Notes: generated by a model from the sequence alone, not told the origin. Shown: positions 30,316-49,611, numbered from the stretch's first letter. The stretch is 64,000 bases of DNA from a virus (IMGVR_UViG_3300045988_138358); one strand, 5' to 3'. Translations and numbers: made by a program.

Positions 30316-30516
30316 ATGAACATTAAACCTATCCGTACAGAACAAGATTATGAGGCCGCACTGCGTGCGGTCGAACCGATGTTCGATAACGAACCGGAAA
30401 TGAATACTCCGGAAGGTGATTTCTTTGAGGTTATGAGTCTTCTCATTGAGGAGTACGAGAAGAAACATTACCCAATTCAGCCACCATCACCTGTTGAATC
30501 TTTTAACTATCCATAA
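30316..30516 (+). pseudogene. truncated antitoxin-like gene: N-terminal domain only, HTH domain missing
   Basis: ORF track 66 aa; the ORF stops where the AT-rich insert begins. Confidence 0.45.
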
Positions 30517-30537
30517 TAAAAGTAATCAGGATAAGCT

Positions 30538-31266: not shown

Positions 31267-31299
31267 AAGCCCAGCATAAACTACTAGGCTATGTGTGGT

Positions 31300-32815: not shown

Positions 32816-33008
32816 AACAAAGCCTCTCAGTCATAACCTGGGGGAAACTGTATGCAGGGTGTGAAATGCGAGAAACAGACAGGCCACCAGTTCAGGGGGA
32901 TGTGGTTCATAAATCCCCTCACTGGTGACAAGTGACTTTCATTAATCTTTATGCGGGGGCCAGCTTCATTTGCTGGCATTAGATTAAAAATTAAACGGAG
33001 TGAATAAC

Positions 33009-33143
33009 ATGGATGTTATCTTCGAATTATTAATGCTAATTGATCTGTTTATGAACGCTTCATTGACCACTCAAATACTGGCGTCAATATTTTTGTTACT
33101 CTTCTACCTGGTATTGAGGGAGTTAACAAAGCTACTAATGTGA
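33009..33143 (+). CDS. small hydrophobic protein, 44 aa
   Basis: Hand-found; ATG 33009 with GGAG ~10 nt upstream; stop abuts the stop of the convergent minus gene. Confidence 0.3.
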   Translation: MDVIFELLMLIDLFMNASLTTQILASIFLLLFYLVLRELTKLLM

Positions 33144-33797
33144 TCAAAGTATCACGGTATCTTCATCAACTTCTTTCCCAGTCAGTGTCTTTGACTGGGA
33201 GGTGCCTGCTTTAACTTTTTCATGCCCAATAATGGACAGGAACGAAGCGAGTATGCCTGTTTTTTGCTCTTTCTCGACTGTACCGGTCATCTGCTCTACG
33301 TAATCCGCACTGGCTACATTGTGGTATACGGTCGCGTAGCAACACAGGATCATCAAAATATGCTCCGGCCTGATATCCTGCCAGTTCACCCGGTAGACTT
33401 CTTCTCCGTTACCGTTGTATTCGGTGTCAACGATGGAGTCAGGGATTTCGAAAGCACCTTTGTTATTTTGCGGCAGGGATAATAGCTTCTGGAGTTTTAA
33501 CTCTCTGTATCTTTCCATCCCGACGATGATTGCTGCTCTGCCATCGGCATGACGGGTCTTGAGAGTCACCTGGCTTGCTCCGGTGCCAGCGGAGATCGTT
33601 GGCGTAATTTCGTCTACCAGTACCTTAAATTTGCTTTTCCGCAGGGCTGCTATAGCTGGAGGAATTTTTTGCTTTTGCTCCAATGCTGACGCGGGAAGGG
33701 GTTTTACTTCGTTAATAATGAGAGCACCGTCTTTCAGTATTGCAGTGAGCATTTGAGGCTTGCTGGTGGTCAGGCTGAATATTGCGATCTTTTCCAT
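33144..33797 (-). CDS. hypothetical protein
   Basis: ORF track 33144-33839 starts at GTG inside a terminator hairpin; ATG at 33797 with SD GGAGGAAGG is the likelier start. Confidence 0.4.
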   Translation of the reverse strand: MEKIAIFSLTTSKPQMLTAILKDGALIINEVKPLPASALEQKQKIPPAIAALRKSKFKVLVDEITPTISAGTGASQVTLKTRHADGRAAIIVGMERYRELKLQKLLSLPQNNKGAFEIPDSIVDTEYNGNGEEVYRVNWQDIRPEHILMILCCYATVYHNVASADYVEQMTGTVEKEQKTGILASFLSIIGHEKVKAGTSQSKTLTGKEVDEDTVIL

Positions 33798-33824
33798 TGT
33801 CCTTCCTCCACGGATGACGGATAC

Positions 33825-33849
33825 AAAAAAAGGCCGCACATGGCGGCCT
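33825..33849 (-). terminator. leader terminator/attenuator-like hairpin just upstream of the RBS of the 33797 gene
   Basis: Minus strand AGGCCGC-loop-GCGGCCT followed by six or seven U. Confidence 0.5.
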
Positions 33850-34065
33850 GCTTTGGCGTTATGACTCCCTACCGCGCTTCGGCTGAAAGTTAATCGTCAA
33901 AAGAACCTTCAACGGGAGCCGTTAGCGCGATGGATTATGTGCAGTTTGTGATTTCCAAAATAGTGTCAACCACTTTTGGTGGATTTTATTTTTTAACCGA
34001 AATTTGGCCTAAATCATGTTTATGTAGTTAATTGTTTTTATAACATAAAACTTCATTTTGTTTGC

Positions 34066-34689
34066 ATGAAGGATGGTGTAGTGAAGTTAAGGGCTTTAGG
34101 GGCCGCGCTCGCGGCTATGTTGGGATGCGTATCTGCTAATACTGCCAATGCAACTGCGTTACCTGCACAATTCAGGGCAGGGCAGCAGGTTATGAATAAC
34201 GCTGGTGGAGATCATTCACAAGCGGCCATTATGGACTTTTGCAAGAGGGAGGGCATTCCATTACGGCCTGTTGGAACTCAGTTTATTGGTAAAACTGACT
34301 TTTGCGTTTTTGCATATACAGCATATCTGACGGACAAAGCTATAACAAAAACAGGTTATTCAACCAAAGATACTCTTTCCAGATTAAGTCAGGGATGGCA
34401 GCAATTCGAAGTGTATCGCCAGCAAGGATTAGGTGAGTTATTGCAACCTCTTTTTATGCTTGCGTTGGTGCCAGAGGGGCAGCAATTTTTGGTTAAAAAG
34501 GGAATGCTTCGCCAAAGTGATATTGCCGGGTTCGATAGCATGATGGCTTATGAGCGCAAACTAACCGAGCAGCGAAATAAAAAACCATCTGCTTCATGTG
34601 TGCAAAGTAAAACAGCAGAATACAGTGCAGTAGCCGGGCCTTTAGCCAAACAAATGGCAGAGCAATGGTGTAAAAAATACGGGCAATAA
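34066..34689 (+). CDS. predicted secreted protein
   Basis: ORF track 207 aa; N-terminal signal peptide. Confidence 0.4.
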   Translation: MKDGVVKLRALGAALAAMLGCVSANTANATALPAQFRAGQQVMNNAGGDHSQAAIMDFCKREGIPLRPVGTQFIGKTDFCVFAYTAYLTDKAITKTGYSTKDTLSRLSQGWQQFEVYRQQGLGELLQPLFMLALVPEGQQFLVKKGMLRQSDIAGFDSMMAYERKLTEQRNKKPSASCVQSKTAEYSAVAGPLAKQMAEQWCKKYGQ

Positions 34690-34709
34690 GTTACGCAGCG
34701 GAGGCAGAA

Positions 34710-35102
34710 TTGAAAAGATTGGCTATTGCTTTACTGGCGTCTTTCCCTTTGATCGCGAGCGCCGGAAATTTACAAGTTAAGTGCGGTCGGTTTGATATAA
34801 AAATCTATCCAGATGCCATATTTCTGAATGGGAATAAGGTTGATAACGCACACCGAAAAACTGAATCTGACGTAATGAGCTATGTGTTCCAGGAGTATGC
34901 GGAGATGGGGGGAACTTACACGCTGTACTCGCTGGATGTTCCTTCTCGCGGTGATATGACATTATCCCATCAATGGCAGAACGCCGATGGCGAAGCTCTG
35001 CGCGAGGTTAAAACAGAAAAATGTGGCACTTTCCATTCTTTTAAAGGGAAAGCGCCAAATGTTAAATCTGTGCTTGAAAAACAGCGCGCAGGTGAGCTTT
35101 AA
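34710..35102 (+). CDS. predicted secreted protein
   Basis: ORF track 130 aa; signal peptide ending ASA. Confidence 0.4.
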   Translation: MKRLAIALLASFPLIASAGNLQVKCGRFDIKIYPDAIFLNGNKVDNAHRKTESDVMSYVFQEYAEMGGTYTLYSLDVPSRGDMTLSHQWQNADGEALREVKTEKCGTFHSFKGKAPNVKSVLEKQRAGEL

Positions 35103-35489
35103 ACACCTTTAACCACGGAGATGCCGTTCCCTGCACGATAGCGGCGGGGAACGGAATTCTCCATCAGGTCACGAATTACTCCCGCCTCATGTAGTTCCAC
35201 TGTTTCCCAGTATCTGTTTGTCACCAATTACGCCCCTTTCCGCCAGGGGAAGGTATGAACGAGCTTCTGCTTCGGTTGCAGCCATGACGCAGATATACAG
35301 GTGTTTTTGGCAGGAATAGAAACGCCAGATAAATTCAGAATGAGTTGGGGTGGGGATAGTAGCGATATTGGCAGCCTCCTTTGACTAAGTTAAGGAGCTA
35401 CCGCGTGAGGTTCCAATCCCGGCACCCGTTTTTCTAAGGTGCCGTAGAAATATACCCCACGATAAGGCCAGGGCGCAAAAGTCAGTATT

Positions 35490-35657
35490 TTATGCTTTGG
35501 CGGATTTCTTCCGGGCTTGCTTGCAGGCGTAGGCCATTGCTTTAGCTTTCACTTCATCCAGCTTCCCGGTGATCACTTCTTTTCCGAGAGTGACAAACCA
35601 GTCATAGCAACCGCCAGTGATGTTCTGGATTTGAAAGTTGAGGTAGCGAACGGTCAT
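35490..35657 (-). CDS. small basic protein, 55 aa
   Basis: Hand-found; ATG with GGGGG upstream; Lys-rich C-terminus. Confidence 0.25.
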   Translation of the reverse strand: MTVRYLNFQIQNITGGCYDWFVTLGKEVITGKLDEVKAKAMAYACKQARKKSAKA

Positions 35658-35978
35658 TTTGACACCCCCAGCGCGAGTAAAGAATGCAGATTATCGCGTG
35701 AGTGGCGGACAACGAGTGATGGGAAAAGACAGTAGCTGTTCATAGTGTAGTGACTCCTTGCTTTCGGAGCCGCCTTCGACTGTTCCACGGTCTGGTGGCG
35801 GCGCAATAAAGGCTGGAACACCGTGAGTCAACGGGGGCTTTTCAGCCACCTATATTGCACCGCCATAGGTATAGCGGCGGCAATAATACGAAAAACTAAA
35901 CAGTTTGTCTCAAAAAGTTGACCGGTGTGCCAATCGGTAGTGAATGTACATCGGAGAAATTTACAATTCAACTTAAAA

Positions 35979-35989
35979 TGTTAGAAAAC
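35979..35989. promoter_or_regulatory. operator-like half-site TGTTAGAAAAC overlapping the ref stop codon
   Basis: Recurrent motif. Confidence 0.35.
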
Positions 35990-36567
35990 TAATTTATCAA
36001 TTCAATCGCCATCTGATACAACGTCATTTCATCGGCATTGTGCCGCATGAAATCTGCTTTTCCGCCTATTTTTCCATCAGCATGAACAGGGACCAGCCAG
36101 GGATATTGTTCTCGGACCTCGGCTGGCGCTGCGTACTGGTGGTGCCATTTACACAAAGGGAGGACATATTTATGCGCGTTCTCTGCCGTTCTCCCGAAGA
36201 TATGGTGCAGGGATACCACTGGGCTATGTTGCCCGTGAATATGGCAGGCAATGCAGGGGAGAGTACCGATAGCGGTCTGTATCCGGCGTTCATCGGCTGT
36301 GAGTGATCTGCCCTTCAGGCCGCGTGACGTGCGTGTTTTTTTGGGCGGAGCGGATACCGCTTTATCTTTTCTCCGCTGTTCATATTGCTTTGCTTTTTCA
36401 ATTTTCTTTTGCCGATATTCAGGCGATGCGGCTTTTTCTCTCGCTCGCTGCTGCTGGCGTTGAGCTTGTTGAAGGCGCTTTGCCCTTTGTTCCTCTCGCC
36501 AGGCTGGGTCAGCCAATTTTTGCATGGCTTTTTGTCTCTGTTTCTCCCAATAACTCTGTTTCTGCAT
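35989..36567 (-). CDS. ref: Ref-like HNH endonuclease (P1 recombination enhancement function family, tentative)
   Basis: ORF track 192 aa; Lys/Arg/Gln-rich N-terminus plus C-terminal Cys/His nuclease-like core. Confidence 0.5.
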   Translation of the reverse strand: MQKQSYWEKQRQKAMQKLADPAWREEQRAKRLQQAQRQQQRAREKAASPEYRQKKIEKAKQYEQRRKDKAVSAPPKKTRTSRGLKGRSLTADERRIQTAIGTLPCIACHIHGQHSPVVSLHHIFGRTAENAHKYVLPLCKWHHQYAAPAEVREQYPWLVPVHADGKIGGKADFMRHNADEMTLYQMAIELIN

Positions 36568-36615
36568 GATGGCAGTCTCTTACTTTTCAACGATTTTTCT
36601 ATGATTGATCAAAAT

Positions 36616-36645
36616 TGTTAGATATTCAAAATTGATTTTCTAACA
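36616..36645. promoter_or_regulatory. operator-like inverted repeat TGTTAGA-N16-TCTAACA
   Basis: Between divergent ref and the 36688 operon. Confidence 0.55.
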
Positions 36646-36687
36646 CAAAATATTAATATCATTCCTGATAACTGTTTGGAGGACATG

Positions 36688-36840
36688 ATGCTTATAGCTT
36701 TAAGTGCGATCCACCAGCCATCTGTGAATGAAATTGGCCTGTTCTATGTGTTGTTTTTCGGGGCGTTGGCGCTACTTGAGCTTGGTATTGAGCTTTTCGC
36801 AGTGCTTATGTTTTGCGTCACGATTTTGGGGAAATTTTGA
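36688..36840 (+). CDS. small hydrophobic protein, ~50 aa
   Basis: Hand-found; GGAGG upstream; its stop overlaps the ATG of the next gene (TGATG). Confidence 0.3.
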   Translation: MLIALSAIHQPSVNEIGLFYVLFFGALALLELGIELFAVLMFCVTILGKF

Positions 36841-37463
36841 TGGTGAAACGTGTTTTGAAAATTTACATCGCGGGGCCGATGACTGGTTATCCAGATTACA
36901 ACCGTGCGGCGTTTAATGCGAAAGCGAGCGAGCTGATGGCTGAAGGGCATATCGTTCTGAATCCAGCTGTGTTACCTGGTGGCCTTTGTCAGAGTGAATA
37001 CATGGATATTTGCCTGGCAATGGTGCGTTCTGCTGATGCGATCTATCTGCTTAAGGGATGGGATGTGTCCGCAGGAGCACGTGCAGAACACGCTCTGGCT
37101 GAAAAACTGGGGTTGACGGTAATTTATGAAGCACCATCTGACACAGATTGCAGAATGGCAGCGCATCTTTACCGTGAACTGGTCGATGCGTTACGTGATG
37201 TTGCTATTGAATGTCACGGCACGGATCAGCTTCGCGCTCGCTTAAGCCAAACCCTTTCCAGTTACCTGTCTTTAGCTGAAGGATACAACCTCCGGCAGCG
37301 GAGAATGGTCAAATTAATCACGCGTTTATCTCAATCCCTGGCAAATGCCGAACCAACTAATCCGCTACCTAATGACGCAATGAATTATCTGAAGTCATGC
37401 GGCGTTGTTTCTGAAGATGCAGTTCGTTTTGTGGAGTTTATGTCTCAGAGGATGTCGGCGTGA
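36840..37463 (+). CDS. nucleoside 2-deoxyribosyltransferase-like (DUF4406-like) protein
   Basis: ORF track 36813-37463 starts at TTG; ATG at 36840 (MVKRVLKIYIAGPMTG) likelier. Confidence 0.5.
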   Translation: MVKRVLKIYIAGPMTGYPDYNRAAFNAKASELMAEGHIVLNPAVLPGGLCQSEYMDICLAMVRSADAIYLLKGWDVSAGARAEHALAEKLGLTVIYEAPSDTDCRMAAHLYRELVDALRDVAIECHGTDQLRARLSQTLSSYLSLAEGYNLRQRRMVKLITRLSQSLANAEPTNPLPNDAMNYLKSCGVVSEDAVRFVEFMSQRMSA

Positions 37464-37777
37464 GCTGGCGGGGATGGGGAAGGGCAGAAATCATGATACT
37501 CCGCCAGTGCGCCGGAACTATGACGGTAGAGAGTATTGGGAAGCTGATCGGTCGTACCGGTGATGCCGTCAGGACTAAAGCGCGAGAGCTGGGGATCAGA
37601 ATGATTCTGAAAGGTGACTTTCACCAGTCAGCCAAATATCGGCAGAGCGATATAGAGCTGGCGCGGCAGCTTCATCAGTGCGGTGTTCCCCGCCGTGAGA
37701 TCGCAGAAAAACTCGAAATGCCCCTGGGCATGATTAATCAGTACGTTTATTTCGAAAGGAGAGTGCATGAAGTCTGA
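37460..37777 (+). CDS. putative HTH DNA-binding protein
   Basis: ORF track 105 aa. Confidence 0.35.
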   Translation: MSWRGWGRAEIMILRQCAGTMTVESIGKLIGRTGDAVRTKARELGIRMILKGDFHQSAKYRQSDIELARQLHQCGVPRREIAEKLEMPLGMINQYVYFERRVHEV

Positions 37778-38468
37778 AGGTTTAACGCCAGAGCAACTGG
37801 CGGAGATCGAGCTTTACTATCCGTTACGTGAACGTTATTCACCGAAACCAGCGCCTAAATGCCCTGTTTGTGGCGAGGAAATGTCAATGCAGCGCATATC
37901 TGGATCACATGTTGTTTATGCCTGTTCCGGCATGGAGGATGACGGATGCTTCAAAACTGGACGAACTTATGCTGACGAGCATTACAAAAATTCGCGCATA
38001 TCAGTAGTTGATGGTAGCGATCCTGATGTGATTGAACTGCTTGACGAGAAAGTGGAGATGGCCCTAACGCTTGAGAAGCTGCGTGTTGAGCTGGAGGCCG
38101 CTAAAAAGTGTATTGCAGAGCTGGAAAGCAATAGCGGGGCGCTGGTGGCGGAATGCCAAAACAAAAAAGCAGCACTTGAGGCAATTCTTAGCCATCTCCC
38201 AATTAATCATCCAGATATAGACATCGCATGCGTAGCGAACATAGCTCATAACGAGTTAGGTGAAGCGAAAAGCACTATATCTGAGGCTTATCTTGTAGAA
38301 ATACAGGCTCAGGGATTGGAGGCATTCGCTTTGACGATGCGCGATACCGGAGATGATCCATTTTTTGATTCCGTTGCTTCTGCTTGCGCGGATGCGGCCG
38401 ACAGGTTCGCAGCCCTGCTTCGTAAAGGACAATCCTGCCTGCGCCCGAACTTTGAAGGGGAAAGATGA
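37767..38468 (+). CDS. Ea22-like mosaic paralog
   Basis: ORF track 233 aa; shares the LRVELEA coiled-coil module with three downstream paralogs. Confidence 0.45.
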
Positions 38469-38791
38469 TGACCACATCTCATTCTGCAATTACCCAGGAA
38501 AAAGCCTTCCACATACTCGAACGATTAGAAACGCTCGCTACGGAGGAGAAGATATCCCCGGAGATGCTGGTCGAGTGCAGCCGTGTGATATTGCGTCGCA
38601 AGAACGACATCGCGCGGCTGACATCTGGCGCACCATCCGTATCAGCCAGTCCAACGCTTTATTGCAGCTTCTGCAACAAATCCCAGCACACCGTTAAAAA
38701 GTTAATTGCCGGGGACAACGCTTTCATCTGCAACGAGTGCGTGAAAGATTGCAACAACATTATCCAGGAAGAGCAAAGGGAATCAGCATGA
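38465..38791 (+). CDS. protein with C-terminal ClpX-type zinc-binding domain
   Basis: ORF track 108 aa; [39 protein letters not shown] is near-identical in pattern to the N-terminal zinc finger of E. coli ClpX as I recall it; no AAA+ module follows. Confidence 0.6.
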
Positions 38792-39504
38792 AATTTTCCA
38801 AATTTTCTGAGTTGGTGAATCGTATTTTGTCCGACAACCACAGCCATCGTCGCGATATGGATGTAACGATCGTTGTTCATTCGCCTGGTCGCATCGGTTC
38901 AACACCATCAGTTGAGGTTCAGTCAATTCAGGTGGGTTTTGATTGGGATGCCGGGAAAGTGCTGATTTTCCCAGCACAGCCACTGACCACGCTAACACCA
39001 GAACAGATTACTGATATCACGGATAGTGTGCGCAAAGGTCAGTCTTGGCACGCATATCAGGAATACAAGAAGCATAAAGAGCAGTTGGAAAAATTGTCGA
39101 TTGAACTGGATGCTGCAAGACGGCGCATTACAGAACTGGAGAGCGAACGCGCGGTGCTGGCGGCGGAGAATGCGGAGCTGAAGTCTGTGCACCCTCAACC
39201 ATTCGGAGCTGAGATGATGAAGGCTCTTGATGCGTATGAGAAGCATCAGGATGAAGTGCCAGAGACTGGAATGCTCAATGCATTTTTCATCTTGCGCGAC
39301 AGTATCTGTGTTGACACCCCAGCCACCGATGCTTTCCTGGCTGAAGTACGGGCGCAGGGGGTAGAGATGTACGCAGATAACCTCGACAACGGAGCAGACG
39401 ACGCAGAACGAGGTGGTTTTGATTATGCCGTTAAGTTTCTACGCAGTGAAGCGTCTAGTGTACGTTTGTTCGCCGACCAGCTTCGCAAAGGAGGCAGCCA
39501 GTGA
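38788..39504 (+). CDS. Ea22-like mosaic paralog
   Basis: ORF track 38737-39504; ATG at 38788 with AAGGGAA upstream. Confidence 0.45.
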
Positions 39505-39794
39505 ATATCGACACGACAATAACGATCGATACGCTCCTAAATACCGGTCTGGCACTTCTCGGTTGGCTTTACATCATGTCCCGTACATGGCGATGGCTGG
39601 GTTCCATTTTCCTGAAACAGTGGAAAAAACGGCGCAAACAGGAACTACGCCAGAAGGCATTAGAAGCGTTCTATGACGCATTTGAACTTGGCAGCATTGA
39701 ACCAGGCACAACAGCGAGGATAGCGACAAAAGGTGACCTGATGATCGTGATGTTCCGACAGGAGAAAGCAAATGGCAGCAAAGCGAATGACTAA
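39501..39794 (+). CDS. small membrane protein
   Basis: ORF track 97 aa; one hydrophobic helix. Confidence 0.35.
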   Translation: MNIDTTITIDTLLNTGLALLGWLYIMSRTWRWLGSIFLKQWKKRRKQELRQKALEAFYDAFELGSIEPGTTARIATKGDLMIVMFRQEKANGSKAND

Positions 39795-39999
39795 TCGCGA
39801 ACTTGTTGATGCCGCGATTGAACTTGCTGGCGATTTTTATTCCATGATGGGTTACGAGCATCGACCTGGTTTTAAGTATTGGGAGTCACCGCATCCGCAA
39901 GAACAACAGGTGTTTGAAATGGCCTGCCGCGCTTTTGAAGTTATTCGCGGTTCTGATGTGATGGACGCGGTTGCTGATTTGGAGGATGTTGCAGAATGA
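39772..39999 (+). CDS. hypothetical protein
   Basis: ORF track 75 aa. Confidence 0.3.
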
Positions 40000-40679
40000 T
40001 CACCGTTAACGACCAGGCGTTATATAGCCGTATTGATGGTTCAGGATACAGAAACATATGGGTTGTTGGTGATTTGCACGGTTGCTACACCCTGCTTATG
40101 AATGAACTCCATCGTGTGGATTTTGACCCGGCGCAGGATTTACTGATATCAGTCGGCGACCTTATCGATCGCGGCACTGAAAATGTCGAATGCCTGGAGT
40201 TATTGCAAATGCCCTGGTTCCGGGCTGTCATGGGTAACCATGAGCGGTTGATGATCGATGCGTTAAGCCCAGCTGGAAACGTGAATAACTGGCTAATGAA
40301 TGGCGGTCAGTGGTTCTTTATGCTGGATAGTGATAAGGAAGTTTTAGCCAGGGCGCTGGTGGAGCTGGTAAGGCAATTGCCTCATATCATTGAGCTGAAC
40401 ACCGGGCAGGAGACTATTGTCATTGCTCATGCTGACTATCCGGATAGAGAGTATCAGTTCGGTAAGGCTGTGCCGCTTTTCAATGTCATCTGGTCGCGCG
40501 ACCGTGTTAGTGATTCGATAGATGGCATCGGTGAAGAAATTACAGGTGCAGATCGATTTATCTTCGGACACACCCCGGCTAAAAGCCCAAAAGCATTCTG
40601 GAACCAGCATTATATCGATACTGGTGCTGTATTTTGCGGAAACCTGACGCTAATGCAGGTGAAGGGAGGGCAATCGTAA
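39996..40679 (+). CDS. serine/threonine protein phosphatase (lambda-type metallophosphoesterase)
   Basis: ORF track 227 aa; GDLHGC, GDLIDRG and GNHE motifs. Confidence 0.8.
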
Positions 40680-40711
40680 GCCGGGTTACATCGTTTACGC
40701 GCTCAAAAGTG

Positions 40712-40741
40712 TGTTAGATTGTTGATTTTAATTTTCTAACA
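40712..40741. promoter_or_regulatory. operator-like inverted repeat TGTTAGA-N16-TCTAACA
   Basis: About 40 nt upstream of the 40784 gene. Confidence 0.55.
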
Positions 40742-40783
40742 TATTATTTTACCGCTCGGAACAAAACAGAGTCGGTATGCATT

Positions 40784-41779
40784 ATGAGTGCAATAATCAC
40801 CCCATATGTCGTAAATGAAACTGGTGTGGCTGTCTTTCCTGTAGATAAGCCCACCAGCAATTACATCGGCGCAGGCCGCCGTTTTCTTATCTCCCCATTG
40901 CCGCGCGAACAGGCTGAAAACACCCCTGATGGCGTCGTGGACCTGAATTATTCCCTGGTTGCCAACCAGTCACTGACACCCTTTTTTCAAAGTGAGCGCG
41001 TATTTAATGCGTTAGGTGGCGAGGATTCTATCGTTCACTGGGTTAGCACCAACATTCACGATTGCCAGGCGCATGATAAGCGCGATTGTAGCCACCAGCT
41101 AACCACTCACTTCTATAACGGTTCTGCCGTTCGCCTGTGCTGGAAGCATGATGCGGAATACATGATGAAGGGGTACAGCAAGCTGGACGACCAGTTATCC
41201 CTGAATCGCGCCAACTGGGTTATGAACTGGGCTGCGAGCGAGTTAAAACTACCGCCAGAACGCGATCTGAGCATGGTTGAACTCACTTTTTGGGCCATTC
41301 GCCGGAATCTGAAAGATGAGCTGCCAGATGAAGCCGGGCGCATTGCATTTTGTCAGCCAAAAACTGAAATCCCTACCGGTACGCTGAAAGAATCAGATAT
41401 CACCTGGGAGCGCAGTACGCGCGAGCTGGTGGACATAACCGCAGAGCAGATCGTCAACCTGTCTGTAGATGAGGATTCTGGCCTCCTATATATGCGCCGT
41501 CCAAAAACCTTACTCGGAAAAAGCCCGGCTTATCTCCGCTTTGTGGTTTCTCGTCCGTGCATCGGATGCGGTGGCAAAGTTAACCACCCGTTCATGTACC
41601 GCGCCCGCTCGTTAAACGAACACGACCGCTGGGCTGTTCCTCTTTGCGATGACTGCGCCAGAAGCGCAGAAAACGATGTCCGGGCATGGGAAAAAGCACA
41701 TGGCATACGCCTTTACGTAGCCGCTAACCAGCTTTTTGACTTCGCCATCGAGCGCGGAGTGATCACGTTCAATAACTGA
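40784..41779 (+). CDS. DUF968-like prophage protein with C-terminal Cys cluster (tentative)
   Basis: ORF track 331 aa. Confidence 0.4.
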   Translation: MSAIITPYVVNETGVAVFPVDKPTSNYIGAGRRFLISPLPREQAENTPDGVVDLNYSLVANQSLTPFFQSERVFNALGGEDSIVHWVSTNIHDCQAHDKRDCSHQLTTHFYNGSAVRLCWKHDAEYMMKGYSKLDDQLSLNRANWVMNWAASELKLPPERDLSMVELTFWAIRRNLKDELPDEAGRIAFCQPKTEIPTGTLKESDITWERSTRELVDITAEQIVNLSVDEDSGLLYMRRPKTLLGKSPAYLRFVVSRPCIGCGGKVNHPFMYRARSLNEHDRWAVPLCDDCARSAENDVRAWEKAHGIRLYVAANQLFDFAIERGVITFNN

Positions 41780-41792
41780 TGGGAACAATGCA

Positions 41793-42092
41793 ATGAGTCA
41801 AGGTAATGGTGACGGAGCTGCAAAGTGCAGAATCTCCACTTGTTTGATTAATGACAAAAAAATAGAACCGTGCGCGGCGTTGGCACAATCTCTGGAGCAG
41901 GATGCTGAATACACGACGCGGAAAGGTCTGCTGAAATACAAAATCTATAACCATGAATTAATTCATTCACAAGACCTGATCATGCTGCGATCAGGCGAGT
42001 TTTCTAAATCGCCGATTCGAATTTCATTTTGCCCGTTCTGTGGTGAAAGTCTGAAAACGCGGGAAGCGGAGGCAACCAGTGAGCAAAATTAA
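41793..42092 (+). CDS. small zinc-ribbon-like protein
   Basis: ORF track 99 aa; CPFCG motif. Confidence 0.3.
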   Translation: MSQGNGDGAAKCRISTCLINDKKIEPCAALAQSLEQDAEYTTRKGLLKYKIYNHELIHSQDLIMLRSGEFSKSPIRISFCPFCGESLKTREAEATSEQN

Positions 42093-42696
42093 CTATCAAG
42101 AACTGCGCGAGGCGGCGGAACAGGCAACGCAAGATGAATGGGTAGCATATATTTTGCCGGGTCATAACGGCATTTATCCTGCGCGCACATCTGAGGGTAG
42201 GCATTGCGGATACTTTATTGACTGGCCTGGCATTGATGGACAAAGGAATGCTGGTGCTAATGCCCGTTATATCGCTGCTATCCCACCAAAAGTTGCGTTG
42301 TCACTACTGGATGAAATTAAACGTCAGGAGGACTCAAATATTGATGCTATGTGCCGTATTGCAGAGCTTGAAACTAATATCGCGGCGCTGGTGGCAGAGA
42401 ACGCCGGACTGAAACACGCAATGGCCGTAACTCTTGAGCATGTGTCGGTAACGGATGCAGGGCAGGCCGGAGTTGCTGCGATGATTATTAATGATGCCCT
42501 GCACCACAGCGAAACGCCAGCTACCGACGCTTTCATGGCGGAAGTGCGGGCGCAGGGGGTGGATATGGCTCGTAACGCGATGATTGATTTTGTTGATGGT
42601 GAAGTTGGGCCAAACAAGAACGTTCCGGGTCTGATTAGAGGCGCAGAGATATGCGTAAGTATTGCTGAACAGCTTCGCAAAGGAGGCAACCAGTGA
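42079..42696 (+). CDS. Ea22-like mosaic paralog
   Basis: ORF track 205 aa; N-terminal INYQELREAAE and C-terminal ATDAFMAEVRAQG..QLRKGGNQ modules shared with paralogs. Confidence 0.45.
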   Translation: MSKINYQELREAAEQATQDEWVAYILPGHNGIYPARTSEGRHCGYFIDWPGIDGQRNAGANARYIAAIPPKVALSLLDEIKRQEDSNIDAMCRIAELETNIAALVAENAGLKHAMAVTLEHVSVTDAGQAGVAAMIINDALHHSETPATDAFMAEVRAQGVDMARNAMIDFVDGEVGPNKNVPGLIRGAEICVSIAEQLRKGGNQ

Positions 42697-43178
42697 GCGA
42701 AATTAATTACCAGGCACTGCGTGAGGCGGCGGAACGTGCAACTCCAGCAATGGAACGCCTGTTAATGTTGCCAGCTGATGATGATTTGTTAAGTGAACAG
42801 GAACTTAAAGATTACGGTGTGGATATTGATGCGCTCAACGCCTTCAAATTTCTGATCGGACCAGAAACCGTGCTGGCGCTGCTGGATGAACGGGAAAGAA
42901 ACCAGCAATACATAAAACGCCGCGATCAGGAGAACGAGGATATTGCGCTAACGGTAGGGAAGCTGCGCGTTGAGCTTGAGGCAGAAAAACAGCGGGCAAA
43001 GGATCTGTTTATGGAAAATGCTCGGCTTAAGTCAGGTATAGCCGGTCTGATACACCTCGGTATTCGATATGCGGATGTTGAGGTCATGAAAATTGCTGGA
43101 GATGCCCAGCTTTCTACCCCATGCACTGACAGCATCATAAACAGCATTGCAACAGGCATTCGCATCGAAGGAGAGTGA
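42693..43178 (+). CDS. Ea22-like mosaic paralog
   Basis: ORF track 161 aa. Confidence 0.4.
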   Translation: MSEINYQALREAAERATPAMERLLMLPADDDLLSEQELKDYGVDIDALNAFKFLIGPETVLALLDERERNQQYIKRRDQENEDIALTVGKLRVELEAEKQRAKDLFMENARLKSGIAGLIHLGIRYADVEVMKIAGDAQLSTPCTDSIINSIATGIRIEGE

Positions 43179-43179
43179 C

Positions 43180-43953
43180 ATGACCACTTTAACCGACAAA
43201 GAACTGATTAAAGAAATCAAAGAGCGCATAGGCAGCTTGGACGTTCGAGACAATATTGAGCGCCGTGCTTATGAAATTGCACTGGCATCGATGGAAGCAG
43301 ATCCAGTTGCTTATATTTTCAAACATCCGGCCGGGAAATTATTCTGGGCTTTAACGGATGAAAGCAATAAAGAGCAAGCGGACGTTATTCCTGTTTATGC
43401 CGCCCCTCCAGTACCAGTAGTACCTGCTGCATTACCTGAGAACGACGATGATGACGGGCATGACATTGATTATCTTGAGCCATCTGAAGTTTACTCGCTT
43501 GGGCGAACAGCTGGCTGGAACGCCTGCCGTGCTGCCATGCTTCATGGTGCCGAACCTGTAAGCCAAACTTACAAGTTGCCTCCCCTGTCATCCAACGAAG
43601 TAAACGACGCGGCATGGAAATTACGCAACATGCTTACTGAACACGGTCCTCTTAATGGGCGTCAGTTCAACAATCTGAAAGGTTGCTTCTATGAGGCATT
43701 AAAGGTCGCAATGCGCAACTATCCGGTAACTCCGGATGGTTGGATAAGCTGTAGTGAGCGAATGCCGGATACCAAAACAGCCGTTCTTGTTGCCAAGGAG
43801 TTTGATAGGAAAGGTGACTGGCGAATGAAATGGGCGACTTACATCCCGGGGCATCCTGACGCTAATGATGGGTGGATCATTCCTGGGGCGTCGTGGAAAC
43901 CGTCACACTGGATGCCGCTACCAGAACCGCCGCAGGAGGTTAACCGTGGCTAA
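43180..43953 (+). CDS. DUF551-like protein (tentative)
   Basis: ORF track 43147-43953; ATG at 43180 has GGAG upstream. Confidence 0.4.
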   Translation: MTTLTDKELIKEIKERIGSLDVRDNIERRAYEIALASMEADPVAYIFKHPAGKLFWALTDESNKEQADVIPVYAAPPVPVVPAALPENDDDDGHDIDYLEPSEVYSLGRTAGWNACRAAMLHGAEPVSQTYKLPPLSSNEVNDAAWKLRNMLTEHGPLNGRQFNNLKGCFYEALKVAMRNYPVTPDGWISCSERMPDTKTAVLVAKEFDRKGDWRMKWATYIPGHPDANDGWIIPGASWKPSHWMPLPEPPQEVNRG

Positions 43954-44227
43954 CCTTCAACTGGCAGTTAACGGTGAATATTTCGACCAGATGAAGTCTG
44001 GAGAGAAAACGGAAGAGTATCGCTTGTGTAATGACTACTGGAATAAGCGAATTCTGTTCCGCGAGTATGACCGCCTGATTATCACAAAGGGATATCCGAA
44101 GCGCGATGATTCCAGCCGCAGAATAGACGTCCCGTATGACGGATATGAAATCAAGACAATCACGCATCCCCACTTCGGCGATAAACCGGTAAAGGTTTAC
44201 GCGATAAAGGTAAATATCAATGGCTAA
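43946..44227 (+). CDS. small ASCH-like protein (tentative)
   Basis: Inferred GTG start at 43946 after GGAGG; ORF track lists a different N-terminus from 43865. Confidence 0.25.
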   Translation: MANLQLAVNGEYFDQMKSGEKTEEYRLCNDYWNKRILFREYDRLIITKGYPKRDDSSRRIDVPYDGYEIKTITHPHFGDKPVKVYAIKVNING

Positions 44228-44624
44228 ATTTCAAAGAAATATTATTTTTCTGGCAATGTTATCTGCCTGTCATTTATCTCATGCATCGGTTATTGCTGCG
44301 GGAGCTGCGGCAACCGCTGTAATTAGCGCCTCATCCGCCAGCGAGCATGAGCAACGTACTGCAATCAATGCATCTGCCAATACCACCACGGTATCAGTAA
44401 CACAAGAAAAGCCGAATATCGGCTTTGTTACTTGTGGCAAGCGATATGGTGAAATGGTTGGCTCTCTTGGTTGCGTAATGTGGCAAGACGACGACCGAAC
44501 AGAAATTCCGTGGAACTCATGGCCTGGCTACATTCTTGGTAAGAAGCTGCCCACCAGCTATGAAGTAAATGCTATTTCGTTCGACCAATATAACAGTGTT
44601 GCAACGGTCTATTTCTCTTATTAA
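44220..44624 (+). CDS. predicted secreted protein
   Basis: ORF track 134 aa; signal peptide. Confidence 0.35.
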   Translation: MAKFQRNIIFLAMLSACHLSHASVIAAGAAATAVISASSASEHEQRTAINASANTTTVSVTQEKPNIGFVTCGKRYGEMVGSLGCVMWQDDDRTEIPWNSWPGYILGKKLPTSYEVNAISFDQYNSVATVYFSY

Positions 44625-44636
44625 CACGGAGTAATT

Positions 44637-44930
44637 ATGTGGCGCGGTAATAATCATGGTGGAAGCCAGATGATACTTACCGAATATCAGCTCGACCACA
44701 AAACCAATAAATCACGCTCAGTATATTTGCTTCGGCACAATAGCCGCGTAAGGAATACCGTGCTGGAGCAAAATCTGACCGTTGAAATGGATAATTCGGG
44801 GAACTTCAAGCCAACAATTTCGCTTGATGATTTTCCGCGTGGTTTAAGCGAAAGAGAAGCCATGCTGAAATTAGCAGAATGGCTTCAGAGGTTAAGTATT
44901 GTTATTGAAGATAACTGGAGTCAACCATAA
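44637..44930 (+). CDS. hypothetical protein
   Basis: ORF track 97 aa. Confidence 0.3.
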   Translation: MWRGNNHGGSQMILTEYQLDHKTNKSRSVYLLRHNSRVRNTVLEQNLTVEMDNSGNFKPTISLDDFPRGLSEREAMLKLAEWLQRLSIVIEDNWSQP

Positions 44931-45106
44931 TGAAAAACAGAAAGAAATTTTGGATTACTTTTTTGTTTGTATGCCTTTGCGGTTTATTTATTTTATTAGC
45001 TGGTGGTGTTAAATGGGGTACGGTGGGGTGTGGTTTTTGGAGCGGGGTTACTCTTTTCGCAGCCTGGCTTATCGCCAACTTTGAGTCAGGCGGAGGGTAT
45101 TGGTAA
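44930..45106 (+). CDS. small membrane protein, 58 aa
   Basis: Hand-found; ATG overlaps the previous stop (TAATG). Confidence 0.3.
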   Translation: MKNRKKFWITFLFVCLCGLFILLAGGVKWGTVGCGFWSGVTLFAAWLIANFESGGGYW

Positions 45107-45185
45107 GTGGTCTTATTCCCCACTTCATAACGGATATCACGCTCGTGATAACGGATATTCCAATTTTGATAACGGATAAGGCCAA

Positions 45186-45395
45186 ATGAAGCATTTTTTA
45201 AGGTTGGCATTTGTTCTGGCGCTATTTGATCCTCCGGCTGCAATGGCTGGAGAACAGCAACATTGCACAAAAGAGAATGAACCCCCTTTCATCGTTATTC
45301 AATGCGATGACGGAACGGTGACTGTGGTTAATGTAAGAAATGACCGTGTAGCTGTTTGCCGTAAAGGCGAACCATGCAAGGAAATAAAACTATGA
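45186..45395 (+). CDS. small secreted protein
   Basis: ORF track 69 aa; signal peptide. Confidence 0.3.
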   Translation: MKHFLRLAFVLALFDPPAAMAGEQQHCTKENEPPFIVIQCDDGTVTVVNVRNDRVAVCRKGEPCKEIKL

Positions 45396-46150
45396 CAAGA
45401 ATCACTAAAGAGCGTATTTCAGATATTATTTCCCGTATCGAAATGTATGGTCACGGTGCTGGATATACGGCAGATGAAGTATTGGCACTTGCCCAAATGG
45501 CTTTGGCGGCTTGCAAAGATGATAAAAAAATGAAGCTTATCGACTTGTTAGTGAAGGAGCTGCCTAAGTGCGGCGGGTGGCCTGATGGTATGATCGATTG
45601 TCGCCTGCTCAGTGCCAATTTAATGGCGCCATGCGCGACTTTTGCTTTTGGCTCAGACCACAAAAAAGACACGTTCTTTGGGCGCAATTTTTGTTGTGAG
45701 ATTGAGCTTCCAATTGGTGACCTTGATAGCGATGAATACCTGTCAGTTGTCACTCGCGAACAATACGAATCAGCTCTCATAGCGTCGCAGAAAGTCGAGT
45801 TCAATGGTGATGAACTTGAAAGTAAGACTTACAGGTTGGATTTTGGGCAATGGCTGGAACAGCAACGCGGGAAAATCGATGTGGACTGTGGTTGTGTGTC
45901 CACTGAAACATTCATGCACTGGCTGCGGGTAGCTTACGAGGCTGGCAACCATCCGGATTTTCCGGATAGTTCCCAACAATCGCCCAAGAAAAGCGTAAAA
46001 ACCACTCTGGAAAGAGGCTATCTTGAGGCCGCATTAAAGATTAAGCCTGGCCATACGCTAGGCGTCATTGATGCCATGTTGGTTCATGAAATGGCGAAGG
46101 CTTTATTGCCGCTGGTGGCTGATAAAATTCCGAATAAAGCCGATATCTGA
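45374..46150 (+). CDS. hypothetical protein
   Basis: ORF track 258 aa. Confidence 0.3.
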   Translation: MQGNKTMTRITKERISDIISRIEMYGHGAGYTADEVLALAQMALAACKDDKKMKLIDLLVKELPKCGGWPDGMIDCRLLSANLMAPCATFAFGSDHKKDTFFGRNFCCEIELPIGDLDSDEYLSVVTREQYESALIASQKVEFNGDELESKTYRLDFGQWLEQQRGKIDVDCGCVSTETFMHWLRVAYEAGNHPDFPDSSQQSPKKSVKTTLERGYLEAALKIKPGHTLGVIDAMLVHEMAKALLPLVADKIPNKADI

Positions 46151-46189
46151 TCACCATGCTAAAATCCCCTCAATTCACAGAGGGGATTT

Positions 46190-46462
46190 TTGTATATGTT
46201 GCATAGAGTTTTATGGAAAAGCGTTATTGTCGGCGCGATACTGGCTATATCTGGGTGTGCAATGGTGCAATACAACGACGGTGAAAAGGTAAGCATACAG
46301 TCAGATGGTTGGTATGGCCTGGATAGCCTGCAAAAAACCGCAGATAAAGCCTGTCAGCAATATGGGAAGTCTAAAGCAGTATATCAGCATAGCGCGAACG
46401 CTAACCCTCATCTAGCGCCCGGTTCTGGTGTTCAGAATACCATCTGGAAATGTGAGCCTTAA
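46190..46462 (+). CDS. predicted lipoprotein
   Basis: ORF track 90 aa; lipobox ISGC. Confidence 0.4.
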
Positions 46463-46464
46463 AT

Positions 46465-46716
46465 ATGAGCGACTGGAATATTGCAGCTAAAAGTCAGGAA
46501 GAACGGGATAAGGTTAACGTTGATCTGGCTGCCAGCGGTGTGGCGTACAAAGAGCGATTGAACATACCTGTCATAGCTGAACAGGTAGCCCGCGAGCAAC
46601 CAGAGAATCTGCGCACCTATTTCATGGAACGGCTACGGCACTACCGGCAGTTAAGCCTCCAGTTGCCAAAAGGGAGCGATCCGGTGTATCAGAACGAGGA
46701 TGCACCAAAAAAATAG
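46465..46716 (+). CDS. hypothetical protein
   Basis: ORF track 83 aa. Confidence 0.3.
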
Positions 46717-46801
46717 CGGCAAGATGGGGGAGAAATGTGATTAGCCCCCAGCGTGGCGCGCCTACAAACCCAGCTTTCACAAACTATGCCTTTTCAATGT
46801 A

Positions 46802-46821
46802 TACTGTATGAATAAACAGTA
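46802..46821 (+). promoter_or_regulatory. LexA box (TACTGTATGAATAAACAGTA)
   Basis: CTGT-N8-ACAG palindrome ending 19 nt upstream of the humD ATG. Confidence 0.75.
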
Positions 46822-46839
46822 TCATTAAGGTAAAACGCT

Positions 46840-47229
46840 ATGGGCTTCCCTTCTCCTGCGGCGGATTATGCAGAGAGCCGCATTTCTCTTGATCAGCAAC
46901 TAATCAGACATCCTTCCGCGACCTACTTCATGCGGGCGGCAGACAGCCATCACCGTGAGGGAATATTGCAAGGTGCTTTGCTGGTGGTTGATTCCTCACT
47001 TACTCCGGTTGATGGTTCACTGCTTATATGCGCTATGGAGGGTGAATATCGCATAAAGAGATACAGGAAGTATCCGCGCCAGCACCTGGAGGATTTAAGC
47101 ACCGGGAAGAAAGAGGCGTTACCAGTAGATGACGATGGATACACGGGCAGTAATGCTGTTTTTGGTGTGATCACTCATGTCATCAATGATGCCCGAAGTG
47201 GGGAGTTTGATTATAGACCTGTGATTTAA
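46840..47229 (+). CDS. humD: HumD-like, pre-truncated UmuD' homolog
   Basis: ORF track 129 aa; begins MGFPSPAADY, i.e. at the position of the UmuD self-cleavage site as I recall it. Confidence 0.65.
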   Translation: MGFPSPAADYAESRISLDQQLIRHPSATYFMRAADSHHREGILQGALLVVDSSLTPVDGSLLICAMEGEYRIKRYRKYPRQHLEDLSTGKKEALPVDDDGYTGSNAVFGVITHVINDARSGEFDYRPVI

Positions 47230-47239
47230 GGCGCATAAA

Positions 47240-47270
47240 GAAGCCCGCCAGACCAGGCGGGCTTTTTGTT
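47240..47270. terminator. intrinsic terminator between humD and the convergent minus operon
   Basis: Hairpin AGCCCGCC-loop-GGCGGGCT followed by TTTTGTT. Confidence 0.65.
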
Positions 47271-47274
47271 GATA

Positions 47275-48369
47275 TCATTCAATGATTTTTTCGGCTGTCA
47301 GCCAGCTAATTTCGTGCCTGTCTTTCGGCGGTTTTAGCATGTGAGCATATTCAGCGACATGCTCCCACGGAATTGTTTTTGCCCACTCAACGATAGCATT
47401 GTGATCTGCAGTGAAGAGTGGAATAGTGTGCGATTTCAACCATTCTAATGTCGTGACGCCATGTTTTTTGGCGTGGTGCTGCGCATGATGCCGGGCTATC
47501 ACTCGTAATGGCATTGTCCATTCACTACCATCAGGCATCGAAAAGCGCATTGTCTTCGGCATATCTGATTCAAGAACAGCCTCCCTAATACCAGGGAACT
47601 CACCAAGAATCATACGACGATAGTCATCACTATTTCGCCCGCCATACCTTTCGGCAAAATGATCAAGATATTCTTGGGTAATAAATGGTGAATCCTCCGC
47701 ACTCAGCTTAATGGCTTTATATACACCACTCGGATTATCTTCAGCTAAAGCACGTCCATGATGTGAATCATAAAAAAAGCCTATTTCCTCTGGTGACGGA
47801 ATTGAAGTGAGCAATATGCGTGAATCACCACTAGTCATGCTTGCCCACACAATGCTGTATGCCCGATCGCTGATATGTGCGGAATCCACAATAATGAATA
47901 AAAGATGGTCGGCGTAGTGACCTGCAATGCTATCTTCATAGTTAAGGCGGTAGTTACAAAAGCACATTCCCCAAAATTCATTGAACATCAGACCGCTATC
48001 ACCGACCTTAAAATACTCAATGATAAAAGGTTGTTTTTTCAGCAATGCCTCCCAACATTGCCACACATATGCAACAATTCCTCTTTTGCAAACATTTGAT
48101 TTTGGATAAACAATTACTGTCCGGGAATCAGGATACATAATCGTATAAAGGGTACTAATAACAGCAAGCACTTGCGGTCGTCCGATCCCATACGGAGTGG
48201 TGACAGTAGCTTTTGCATTATTGGGCTGTATAGCTTCAACAATTTGTTGTTGCTGGTGGCTTAAATCAATATCAAACAATTCTTTTGCTGCCAGTACCCA
48301 ATTGTCTTTATATTTCTCCACCAGCGACAGCCAGCGCGGATCTTTATAAATATTGCTCTTAGTCGCCAT
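47275..48369 (-). CDS. terminase large-subunit ATPase-domain paralog with degenerate Walker A and B, no nuclease domain
   Basis: ORF track 47275-48660; likelier start ATG 48369. Aligns by eye with the PacB-like protein at 53517-55025, but GHGTGKS is PYGIGRP and LDEAS is VDSAH. Confidence 0.6.
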   Translation of the reverse strand: MATKSNIYKDPRWLSLVEKYKDNWVLAAKELFDIDLSHQQQQIVEAIQPNNAKATVTTPYGIGRPQVLAVISTLYTIMYPDSRTVIVYPKSNVCKRGIVAYVWQCWEALLKKQPFIIEYFKVGDSGLMFNEFWGMCFCNYRLNYEDSIAGHYADHLLFIIVDSAHISDRAYSIVWASMTSGDSRILLTSIPSPEEIGFFYDSHHGRALAEDNPSGVYKAIKLSAEDSPFITQEYLDHFAERYGGRNSDDYRRMILGEFPGIREAVLESDMPKTMRFSMPDGSEWTMPLRVIARHHAQHHAKKHGVTTLEWLKSHTIPLFTADHNAIVEWAKTIPWEHVAEYAHMLKPPKDRHEISWLTAEKIIE

Positions 48370-49126: not shown

Positions 49127-49132
49127 GTTAAA

Positions 49133-49597: not shown

Positions 49598-49611
49598 AGT
49601 CTTTTCTCTGC

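Follow-up and report, generated by a model that had tools for sequence, protein, structure and literature searches.

Within the window, a stretch of 64,000 nucleotides (nt) from the virus IMGVR_UViG_3300045988_138358 that, judged by its sequence, is a D6-like phage-plasmid of the P1 family, four mosaic genes related to ea22 of phage lambda (here named A, B, C and D) meet several of their neighbours through one short recurrent sequence, hereafter the joint. Taken as a whole, our results make it likely that this joint is a translational-coupling element which doubles as short homology for the in-register exchange of cassettes among separate mosaic genes of the Ea22 family. A portable joint of the form ...CAGCTTCGC-AAAGGAGG-CAACCA-GTGA-GC..., about 20-80 nt long, would couple the translation of the next gene to that of the previous one, and its presence on many otherwise unrelated cassettes would provide a homologous stretch of 18-40+ nt. 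There, host RecA, or phage recombinases accepting short or imperfect homology, would swap, insert or delete cassettes by homologous recombination, with crossovers in register leaving both reading frames and the coupling intact. Further crossovers in the conserved coiled-coil and ATDAF blocks within the genes would shuffle protein modules. The products of A-D would each comprise a coiled coil in the middle and exchangeable modules at the N-terminal and C-terminal ends.

With up to two mismatches allowed, three copies of the joint core GGAGGCARCCAGTGA were located in the window, compared with 0.22 occurrences expected, and none of 100 shuffled sequences reached three. In its general form, AAAGGAGGCA[A/G]CCAGTGA, the joint is a Shine-Dalgarno site followed by a 6-nt spacer and a GTG start codon overlapping the TGA stop of the preceding gene. 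Its full version, between C and D (copy 3 in Table 1), reads GCTGAACAGCTTCGC AAAGGAGG CAACCA GTGA GC GAAATTAATTACCAGGCACTGCGTGAGGCGGCGGAA, comprising the last codons of the upstream gene (..EQLRKGGNQ*), the Shine-Dalgarno site AAGGAGG, the 6-nt spacer, and the GTG overlapping TGA. An earlier note on this stretch, made from the sequence alone, had placed the junctions at 42064, 42683 and 39486, with each next start codon over the previous stop. The recurrence holds, and the positions were right to within 4 nt (42068, 42682 and 39490). Only at 39501 and 42693 is there a GTGA overlap with AAGGAGG 6 nt before the GTG; the GTG at 42079 does not overlap the stop of the preceding open reading frame (ORF) of 99 amino acids (aa; orf99), which comes 14 nt later. 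The joint copy at that place (copy 2) has no upstream LRKGG module, its similarity to the other copies starts exactly at GGAGG, and the last 8 codons and the stop of orf99 run through it in a different frame (..EAEATSEQN*), an arrangement shared with orf99/orf100 of phage D6. When folded as DNA, none of the three copies exceeds shuffled sequence in stability, whichever strand is taken (z +0.8 to +1.6), which suits an open ribosome-binding site and speaks against a hairpin-type recombination site; a hairpin or attC-like structure at the joints was rejected on these grounds. Neither inverted repeats at the joints, in the repeat search, nor matches there in an Rfam scan of the entire window at gathering thresholds were obtained. 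By its composition, the joint appears to be also, and probably primarily, a ribosome-binding and stop/start coupling element.

The distribution of the joint across viruses was assessed with an exact search of IMG/VR for the 18-nt pattern AAAGGAGGCARCCAGTGA, which matched at least 120 contigs. After duplicate removal, at least 110 unique instances remained among the matches listed, to which all the counts in this paragraph refer; these group into 22 upstream and 32 downstream nucleotide clusters, paired in 73 combinations. The upstream ORFs all end in ..KGG(N/S)Q* and belong to at least 8 unrelated families, and in some cases the real upstream gene would lie in another frame, since the in-frame ORF spans only 11-15 codons. 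Most of the downstream ORFs are Ea22-like genes of INYQ type, with bodies of many kinds; the rest include DUF4752 genes, homologs of orf75 and orf99 of the window, the body of gene A, and methyltransferase-like and 3'-phosphoadenosine 5'-phosphosulfate (PAPS)-reductase-like genes, these last two labels being given by eye from N-terminal sequence only. Where two instances have only the joint in common, the block they share has a median length of 26 nt (interquartile range 18-42), a conservative measure whose lower bound is set by the 18-nt search pattern. The same joints are also present in lambdoid prophages. We therefore find in the joint what characterizes a boundary sequence, namely a short conserved sequence at a gene boundary with unrelated flanks in different genomes.

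A second sample was anchored on protein, using the relatives of gene D and of the D6-like block, and comprised 58 unique INYQ-type starts. The core is carried by 47 of them, either as the exact 14 nt AAAGGAGGCAACCA (28/58) or with 1-3 differences (19/58), and the remaining 11 have unrelated joints, one of which is that used by lambda ea22. Core variants in the KGGNQ frame amount to 19 non-synonymous and 4 synonymous changes, and the core is also found where the upstream ORF is in another frame (42068); the constraint thus acts on DNA or RNA, not on the peptide.

Exchange at the joint was then followed on one backbone by comparing the window with seven D6-like relatives. The eight elements contain 1-5 joint-like sites each, with at least 16 different upstream/downstream pairings among them, and the genes annotated as Ea22-like number from 2 to 4 and stand in differing order. 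Breakpoints recur at the joints, at the end of the INYQ block and at module edges within genes (Table 1). In plasmid pCUVET16-559.2 (L122), gene C is absent and a single joint is present, which equals copy 1 of the window up to the 17-nt core GGAGGCAACCAGTGAGC, common to both copies, and copy 2 thereafter, so that the crossover for the presence or absence of gene C maps inside this identical core. Such a joint would be the product expected from one homologous crossover between two joints, or from the reverse insertion. Similarly, the gene with the body of A is followed by D in L124 and by the DUF4752 gene in L122, the two diverging right after GTGA. In the window and in L123, divergence comes after AAAGGA, within the core, and the gene carries a 39-nt extension that ends in FEGER* and overlaps the ATG of the ClpX-type zinc-finger gene. 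Both comparisons thus place crossovers within the conserved sequence itself, as is proper to boundary sequences. The interpretation of the repeats as recombination joints enabling module exchange, already put forward in the earlier note together with a proposal to compare paralog content across related elements, gains support from the many unrelated partners (at least 110 instances), the pairings on one backbone and the base-level breakpoints within the joint, and is qualified by the intragenic breakpoints.

Similarity edges were also located in pairs of IMG/VR instances with one flank at least 95% identical and the opposite flank unrelated. Among the matches listed, the edges scatter within the joint, with right modes at 0-4 and 25-30 nt and left modes at 0-3, 5-10 and 22 nt; since the analysis is partly constrained by its own selection windows, only this distribution inside the joint is informative. 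No single fixed crossover position was found among these matches, as the edges spread over 0 to about 30 nt to the left and right of the core, and because of this scatter the pattern fits homologous rather than site-specific crossovers.

All four genes match phrog_368 (E 5e-45 to 5e-58); each of them also has partial-length matches to many other PHROGs, as is typical of mosaic proteins. The Pfam family PF13935 (Ead_Ea22; gathering score 27 bits) is passed by A (40.3 bits), C (87.9 bits) and D (114.7 bits), and no match to it at E<=0.01 was found for B. Gene A has a borrowed N-terminus of 13 codons, a Cys-rich segment, a coiled coil (LRVELEA plus IAELESN..LVAE) and a diverged C-terminal module of ATDAF type, its 3' part ending in a degenerate LRKG joint followed by a 13-codon tail (FEGER*). 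Gene B begins with an ATG lying over the stop of the ClpX-type zinc-finger gene (ATGA); its product has a unique N-terminal domain followed by a coiled coil and, at the C-terminus, an EaE-like module ending in QLRKGGSQ*. Gene C is a cassette, present in some relatives and absent in others, in which an Ea22-type N-terminus (INYQELREAAE), a small variable domain and a coiled coil precede an EaE-type ATDAFMAEVRAQG...QLRKGGNQ* module; its product is 100% identical to the NCBI 'ead/Ea22-like family protein' and has more than 3,800 relatives at E<=1e-5. Gene D consists of an INYQALREAAE N-terminus and a coiled-coil core, and ends in ..GIRIEGE*. An AlphaFold 2 (AF2) model of the C protein, built from a 27-sequence alignment, has a helix at 6-15, a long helix at 70-121 with predicted local distance difference test (pLDDT) values of 84-89, and a low-confidence helical C-terminal part. 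A phmmer search of PDB sequences with this protein gave nothing relevant, only a chance antibody match at E 0.97.

The modules are shared among the four genes in a shuffled manner, as the earlier note had noticed, although none of the three modules that it named is shared intact by all four: the INYQxLREAAE segment is confined to C and D, the LRVELEA block to A and D, and the ATDAF(L/M)AEVRAQG...QLRKGG(S/N)Q module to B and C, with a diverged version in A. An additional block, IAELE..ALVAEN, is present in A, B and C. The 'Ea22-like' label given to the family fits A, C and D; gene B, as well as the C-terminal halves of B and C, are nearer to P22 EaE. That the region 37700-43200 contains real internal repeats was confirmed by self-blastn of 37000-44300, with four significant direct repeats of 47-71 bits against a best score of 34 bits in 30 codon-shuffled versions, and a separate repeat search recovered the same families. 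The edges of the ATDAF repeat in gene C (42511 and 42567) coincide with recurrent breakpoints in the relatives.

The origin of the modules was traced by blastp. Gene D aligns with lambda Ea22 residues 1-81 (56% identity, E 1e-29) and with P22 EaD 37-76 (80% identity); gene C with lambda Ea22 residues 1-21 (71% identity) and with P22 EaE residues 35-92 (41% identity, 1e-8); gene B with P22 EaE residues 35-162 (32% identity, E 6e-8); and gene A with P22 EaD residues 49-148 (29% identity). Alignments of A-D to lambda Ea22 were found only within residues 1-102 (D 1-81, C 1-21, A 37-102), and since no paralog aligns past residue 102, none of them would have the C-terminal domain of lambda Ea22, a dimeric alpha/beta domain solved by nuclear magnetic resonance. 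In nucleotide comparisons, pieces of C and D recur in 538 phage records, namely the ATDAF block, the joint and the coiled-coil core at 42867-42994. This core of D is about 87-92% identical to lambda (DE3) ea22, P22 eaD and P7 upf88.3, and 78% identical to A; being nearer to other phages than to the paralog within the window, it indicates that A-D are separately acquired mosaic cassettes rather than local duplicates. From these alignments, A-D appear to be chimeras of lambda Ea22 / P22 EaD and P22 EaE prototypes.

Table 1. Genes, joints, repeats, breakpoints and other features of the window (positions counted from its first nucleotide).
Feature	Position	Strand	Description
Gene A	37767-38468	+	233 aa; mosaic Ea22/EaD-like; PF13935 5.8e-10, phrog_368 5e-45
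Gene B	38788-39504	+	238 aa; phrog_368 2.4e-51, phrog_6026 5e-53; P22 EaE-like
orf99	41793-42092	+	99-aa ORF; P7 upf87.4-like, phrog_4030
Gene C	42079-42696	+	205 aa; PF13935 1.2e-24; chimera
Gene D	42693-43178	+	161 aa; PF13935 6.3e-33; nearest of the four to lambda Ea22 / P22 EaD
Joint copy 1	39472-39504	+	GCCGACCAGCTTCGCAAAGGAGGCAGCCAGTGA; end of B (..DQLRKGGSQ*), AAGGAGG, GTG of DUF4752 gene over TGA; 91% identical to 42664-42696
Joint copy 2	42068-42133	+	GGAGGCAACCAGTGAGC then first 18 codons of C (SKINYQELREAAEQ..); 85% identical to 42682-42747
Joint copy 3 (full)	42664-42747	+	GCTGAACAGCTTCGCAAAGGAGGCAACCAGTGAGCGAAATTAATTACCAGGCACTGCGTGAGGCGGCGGAA; end of C, Shine-Dalgarno site, GTG/TGA overlap, start of D
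KGE* joint	43158-43182	+	ATTCGCATCGAAGGAGAGTGAcATG; end of D, Shine-Dalgarno GAAGGAGAG, stop, 1 nt, ATG of DUF551 gene
Direct repeat	42068-42165 / 42682-42779	+	76% identity, 71 bits
Direct repeat	39313-39504 / 42511-42696	+	65% identity, 67 bits
Direct repeat	38046-38108 (A) / 42930-42992 (D)	+	coiled-coil module; 78% identity, 52 bits
Direct repeat	38110-38152 (A) / 42356-42398 (C)	+	coiled-coil module; 86% identity, 47 bits
Coiled-coil repeat	38110-38152 (A) / 39125-39167 (B)	+	77% identity
ATDAF module repeat	39313-39369 (B) / 42511-42567 (C)	+	84% over 57 nt; 65% over 195 nt as far as the joint
Breakpoint	39468-39491		joint 1
Breakpoint	42068		left edge of joint 2; 5/7 relatives
Breakpoint	42110-42129		end of INYQ block
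Breakpoints	42660-42682 and 42712-42742		joint 3
Breakpoint	43178-43187		D/DUF551 joint
Breakpoints	42231, 42320, 42511, 42567, 42861-42874, 42984-42993		intragenic module edges
ref	35989-36567	-	Ref-family recombination-enhancement nuclease gene, homolog of P1 ref; directly beside the shuffled cassette block
tRNA genes	58311-58383, 59351-59423, 59429-59502	-	Rfam, gathering thresholds; three, as in P1-family phages, far from the block

Recombination through RecA requires homology over roughly 20-30 bp, and the single-strand-annealing recombinases of phages also accept shorter and diverged stretches; the blocks shared through the joint are therefore plausible recombination substrates. Several points weigh against cassette exchange at the joint as proposed here. 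The shared homology is short, its median of 26 nt among the matches listed being near the lower limit for RecA, and the IMG/VR instances were chosen by an exact 18-nt pattern, so the conservation of their core follows from this selection, which the protein-anchored sample corrects in part. Many breakpoints lie away from the joints, inside genes at module edges, and recurrent breakpoints cannot be counted as independent events, given the common ancestry of the seven relatives. Recombination at the joint is read from genome comparison and translational coupling from sequence, and the AF2 model of C is poor (mean pLDDT 60.9), with confidence only for helix 70-121. Finally, the in-frame fusion in gene A, at nt 39 of the gene (37805), lacks clean homology and is not a clean joint crossover. 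Codons 1-13 of A (37767-37805) derive from a 510-nt coiled-coil gene located upstream of the A-body gene in L122, L124 and L126, and compared with L122 7968-8006 and 8463-8480 the fusion looks like an illegitimate or microhomology deletion; illegitimate recombination would hence also contribute. A rival explanation follows the Hendrix-type model: the joint would be conserved only as a good translation-initiation and coupling element, its homology being non-causal, and mosaicism would result from random illegitimate recombination plus selection for intact genes. This agrees with the joint being an unstructured, canonical array of Shine-Dalgarno site, spacer and start, as well as with the fusion in A and the many intragenic breakpoints without obvious homology. 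However, it leaves the conservation of the 6-nt spacer CAACCA and its flanking bases, which are unneeded for Shine-Dalgarno function, and the identity of the last codons at the nucleotide level in unrelated genes without a reason; moreover, both end-points of the presence or absence of gene C fall within the 17-nt identical core, and similarity edges concentrate in the joint. We consider this model unlikely.

Alternatively, A-D could be local tandem duplicates that diverged in place, the junction being residual similarity. The assignment of the four genes to the same PHROG, their arrangement in two adjacent pairs and the N-termini common to C and D would agree with this origin, but the similarity between paralogs is patchy (43-100 nt blocks at 76-86%, with nothing between), other phages hold closer relatives of the D coiled-coil block than A does, and the number, order and pairing of the genes vary between near-identical backbones; in addition, unrelated genes are also preceded by the joint. 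In-situ duplication as the origin of the paralogs was rejected on the patchy similarity, the closer relatives elsewhere and the differing pairings, and this explanation, to which we assign a very low probability, can be regarded as already largely refuted. Still less credible to us is that the joint is the target of a dedicated site-specific cassette system, either integron/attC-like or based on a homing endonuclease, for which the neighbouring DUF968 gene would be the candidate. The cassette-like gene organization, the annotation of the DUF968/pdcB gene inside the block as 'HNH endonuclease' and the adjoining Ref nuclease gene are suggestive of such a system; against it, the joints have neither inverted repeats nor a stable hairpin on either strand, the crossover edges spread over tens of nucleotides, the same joints occur in lambdoid prophages, where a DUF968 gene may or may not lie nearby, and no integrase or recombinase was found in Pfam scans of 10 block genes and a PHROGs scan of the helix-turn-helix (HTH) and DUF551 genes, the remaining block genes being unscanned. 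Beyond the coupling joint with a secondary role in exchange that we favour, a more far-reaching proposal would have the joints kept by second-order selection as dedicated in-frame recombination linkers (natural 'homology arms') serving a cassette pool common to lambdoid prophages and P1/D6-like phage-plasmids, with the KGGNQ* and K/R-G-E* termini conserved mainly for their DNA-level role; we regard it as doubtful.

The phenomenon itself is already known, both from the boundary sequences of lambdoid phages and from mosaic ea22 genes. The former, also called linkers (Clark et al., 2001, on HK620, and Susskind and Botstein, 1978, as cited in PMC3029335), are described in the citing paper as short conserved sequences at the gene boundaries of otherwise unrelated segments, proposed as homologous recombination sites that assort modules (PMC3029335). 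As far as can be told from that citing paper, the window joints resemble them, come from the same pool of genes (ea of P22-like and lambda-like phages) and differ in being documented in P1/D6-like phage-plasmids, with partner counts and base-level crossovers. Regarding ea22, its mosaicism has been described (PMC10834534, PMC7093339), and in Shiga toxin (Stx) phages the N-terminus and the coiled coil are shared and the C-terminal domains are dissimilar (PMC10834534). What is added here is the documentation in D6-like phage-plasmids, the counts of joint partners, the crossovers mapped to the base, and an explanation of the K/R-G-E motif given below. The joint offers a compact, countable case for an old question on phages, whether mosaic boundaries arise via homologous recombination at conserved linkers or via illegitimate recombination plus selection, as one short sequence can be traced across more than 100 viral contigs and its crossovers mapped to the base. 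It also shows a common pool of accessory genes for P1/D6-like phage-plasmids and lambdoid prophages, and how cassettes can pass between them without breaking reading frames or translation.

Compared with lambda Ea22 and P22 EaD, genes A, C and D pass the same Pfam family and would have the same arrangement of N-terminal segment, coiled coil and variable C-terminal domain. Nevertheless, the window genes are located between ref and hot/phd-doc of a phage-plasmid and not, as in an integrated lambdoid phage, in the exo-xis region of its pL operon, four copies are present per element, none with the lambda C-terminal domain, and B falls below the Pfam threshold. Ea22 of lambda and of Stx phages favours lysogeny, and the full-length lambda protein is tetrameric (PMC7093339, PMC10834534); from this literature on lambda and Stx phages only, we infer that A-D may favour lysogeny and form coiled-coil oligomers. 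B and C resemble P22 EaE in the coiled-coil segment and the (V/M)RAQ block, B matching through its C-terminal ..AAQLRKG.. end, and differ from it in their N-terminal halves, that of C being of Ea22 type. To our knowledge, no function is known for P22 EaE. The joint also resembles the overlaps of translationally coupled genes in its 4-nt stop/start overlap, its AAGGAGG 6 nt before the start and its lack of structure, and 12 of the 15 joints in the gene train described below are of overlapping or nearly abutting type; unlike in ordinary coupled operons, different and unrelated pairs of genes in many phages are linked by one and the same sequence. Integron cassettes (attC) are likewise small promoterless genes in one orientation, whose number and order vary between related elements. 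In contrast to them, the joints here have no attC-like hairpin and no fixed crossover point, the scanned genes include no integrase, and exchange looks homologous.

A second type of joint was recognized at the end of gene D. D-type genes end in ..GGCATTCGCATCAAAGGAGAG TGA N ATG (..GIRIKGE*), with the variant ..ATCGAAGGAGAGTGAcATG at 43158-43182 of the window, and in 80 loci of IMG/VR contigs this KGE* joint precedes at least 12 different genes, including DUF551-type and ClpX-type zinc-finger genes. It has been reported that all Ea22 proteins end in K/R-G-E, a trait whose significance was called unknown (Dydecka et al.; PMC7093339). On the simplest reading, a second portable joint, ATCAAAGGAGAGTGAnATG, would have the K/R-G-E codons as its Shine-Dalgarno site (AAAGGAGAG) and stop, a small new point that offers a simple explanation of the published puzzle and leaves knowledge on the function of Ea22 unchanged. 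The ea22 gene of lambda (DE3) ends with the same KGE sequence (L208 1915-1960) and, as no ATG gene follows it, the joint would be a relic there. In P22, eaD ends in AAGGGGGAATGA overlapping the start of eaI (L209 2960-2995), the end of eaE is a variant of the window joint, AAAGGAGTGCAGTCATGA, and eaF and eaD share a 26-nt start joint, CAGCCCAATGAGCAACATCGACAAAC (MSNIDK; L209 2025-2063 and 2381-2420), homologous to the CAACCAGTGAGCAAAATTAACTAT joint of the window. As a separate observation, a KGE-type core, AAAGGAGAGTGC, lies at 37755-37766 of the window before the start of gene A, where the upstream HTH gene (..FERRVHEV*) runs through it in a different frame; the HTH gene and A overlap by 11 nt, analogous to the orf99/C case at 42068.

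In nucleotide searches, the region 37700-43200 had 91% identity to Escherichia phage D6 across 68% of its length, and 30000-50000 matched about 1,300 plasmid records, with 96-98% identity to many non-mobilizable plasmids of about 90 kb from E. coli, Shigella and Salmonella. According to the annotations of D6 and six plasmids, the accessory block starts downstream of ref and extends on the + strand past ppp and the DUF968/pdcB-like and DUF551 genes towards hot and phd/doc; the 'HNH endonuclease' annotation of the DUF968/pdcB gene mentioned above is that of the D6 record. The small accessory genes of the block form an extended train on the + strand and come from the early-left (exo-xis / ea) pool of lambdoid phages. 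In the train at 36676-44624 (+ strand), the 12 of 15 joints referred to above are overlapping or at most 1 nt apart, and most show a purine-rich stretch resembling a Shine-Dalgarno site in the final codons of the gene before, within 20 nt of the next start. No sigma-70-like promoter was predicted on the + strand within the block, and a strong terminator on that strand first appears at 46161-46190, so the genes look like one long operon. A published account of D6-like plasmids in Salmonella is silent on this block.

Other variations were observed among the cassettes. A 312-nt gene cassette (L001 5010-5329) is present in D6, L123, L124 and L127 and not in the window (compare 40012-40020, at the 5' end of the phosphatase gene ppp); its breakpoints fall in the first 17-25 nt of ppp, an insertion or deletion at a gene start through a different joint, TTGGAGGATG.. 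The end of ppp (40653-40679) reads ..VKGGQS*, resembling the KGG(N/S)Q* tail of the joint, and is followed by a 104-nt gap with no overlapping start. The DUF4752 gene has forms of 294 nt (window 39501-39794) and 276 nt (L122 9109-9384), the longer one overlapping the next gene by 23 nt versus 4 nt, which suggests an altered 3' end. In plasmid p1_000837 (L126), a gene for TnpB, of the RNA-guided endonuclease family, borne on an insertion sequence, is inserted between the cassette genes and ppp (12377-13585).

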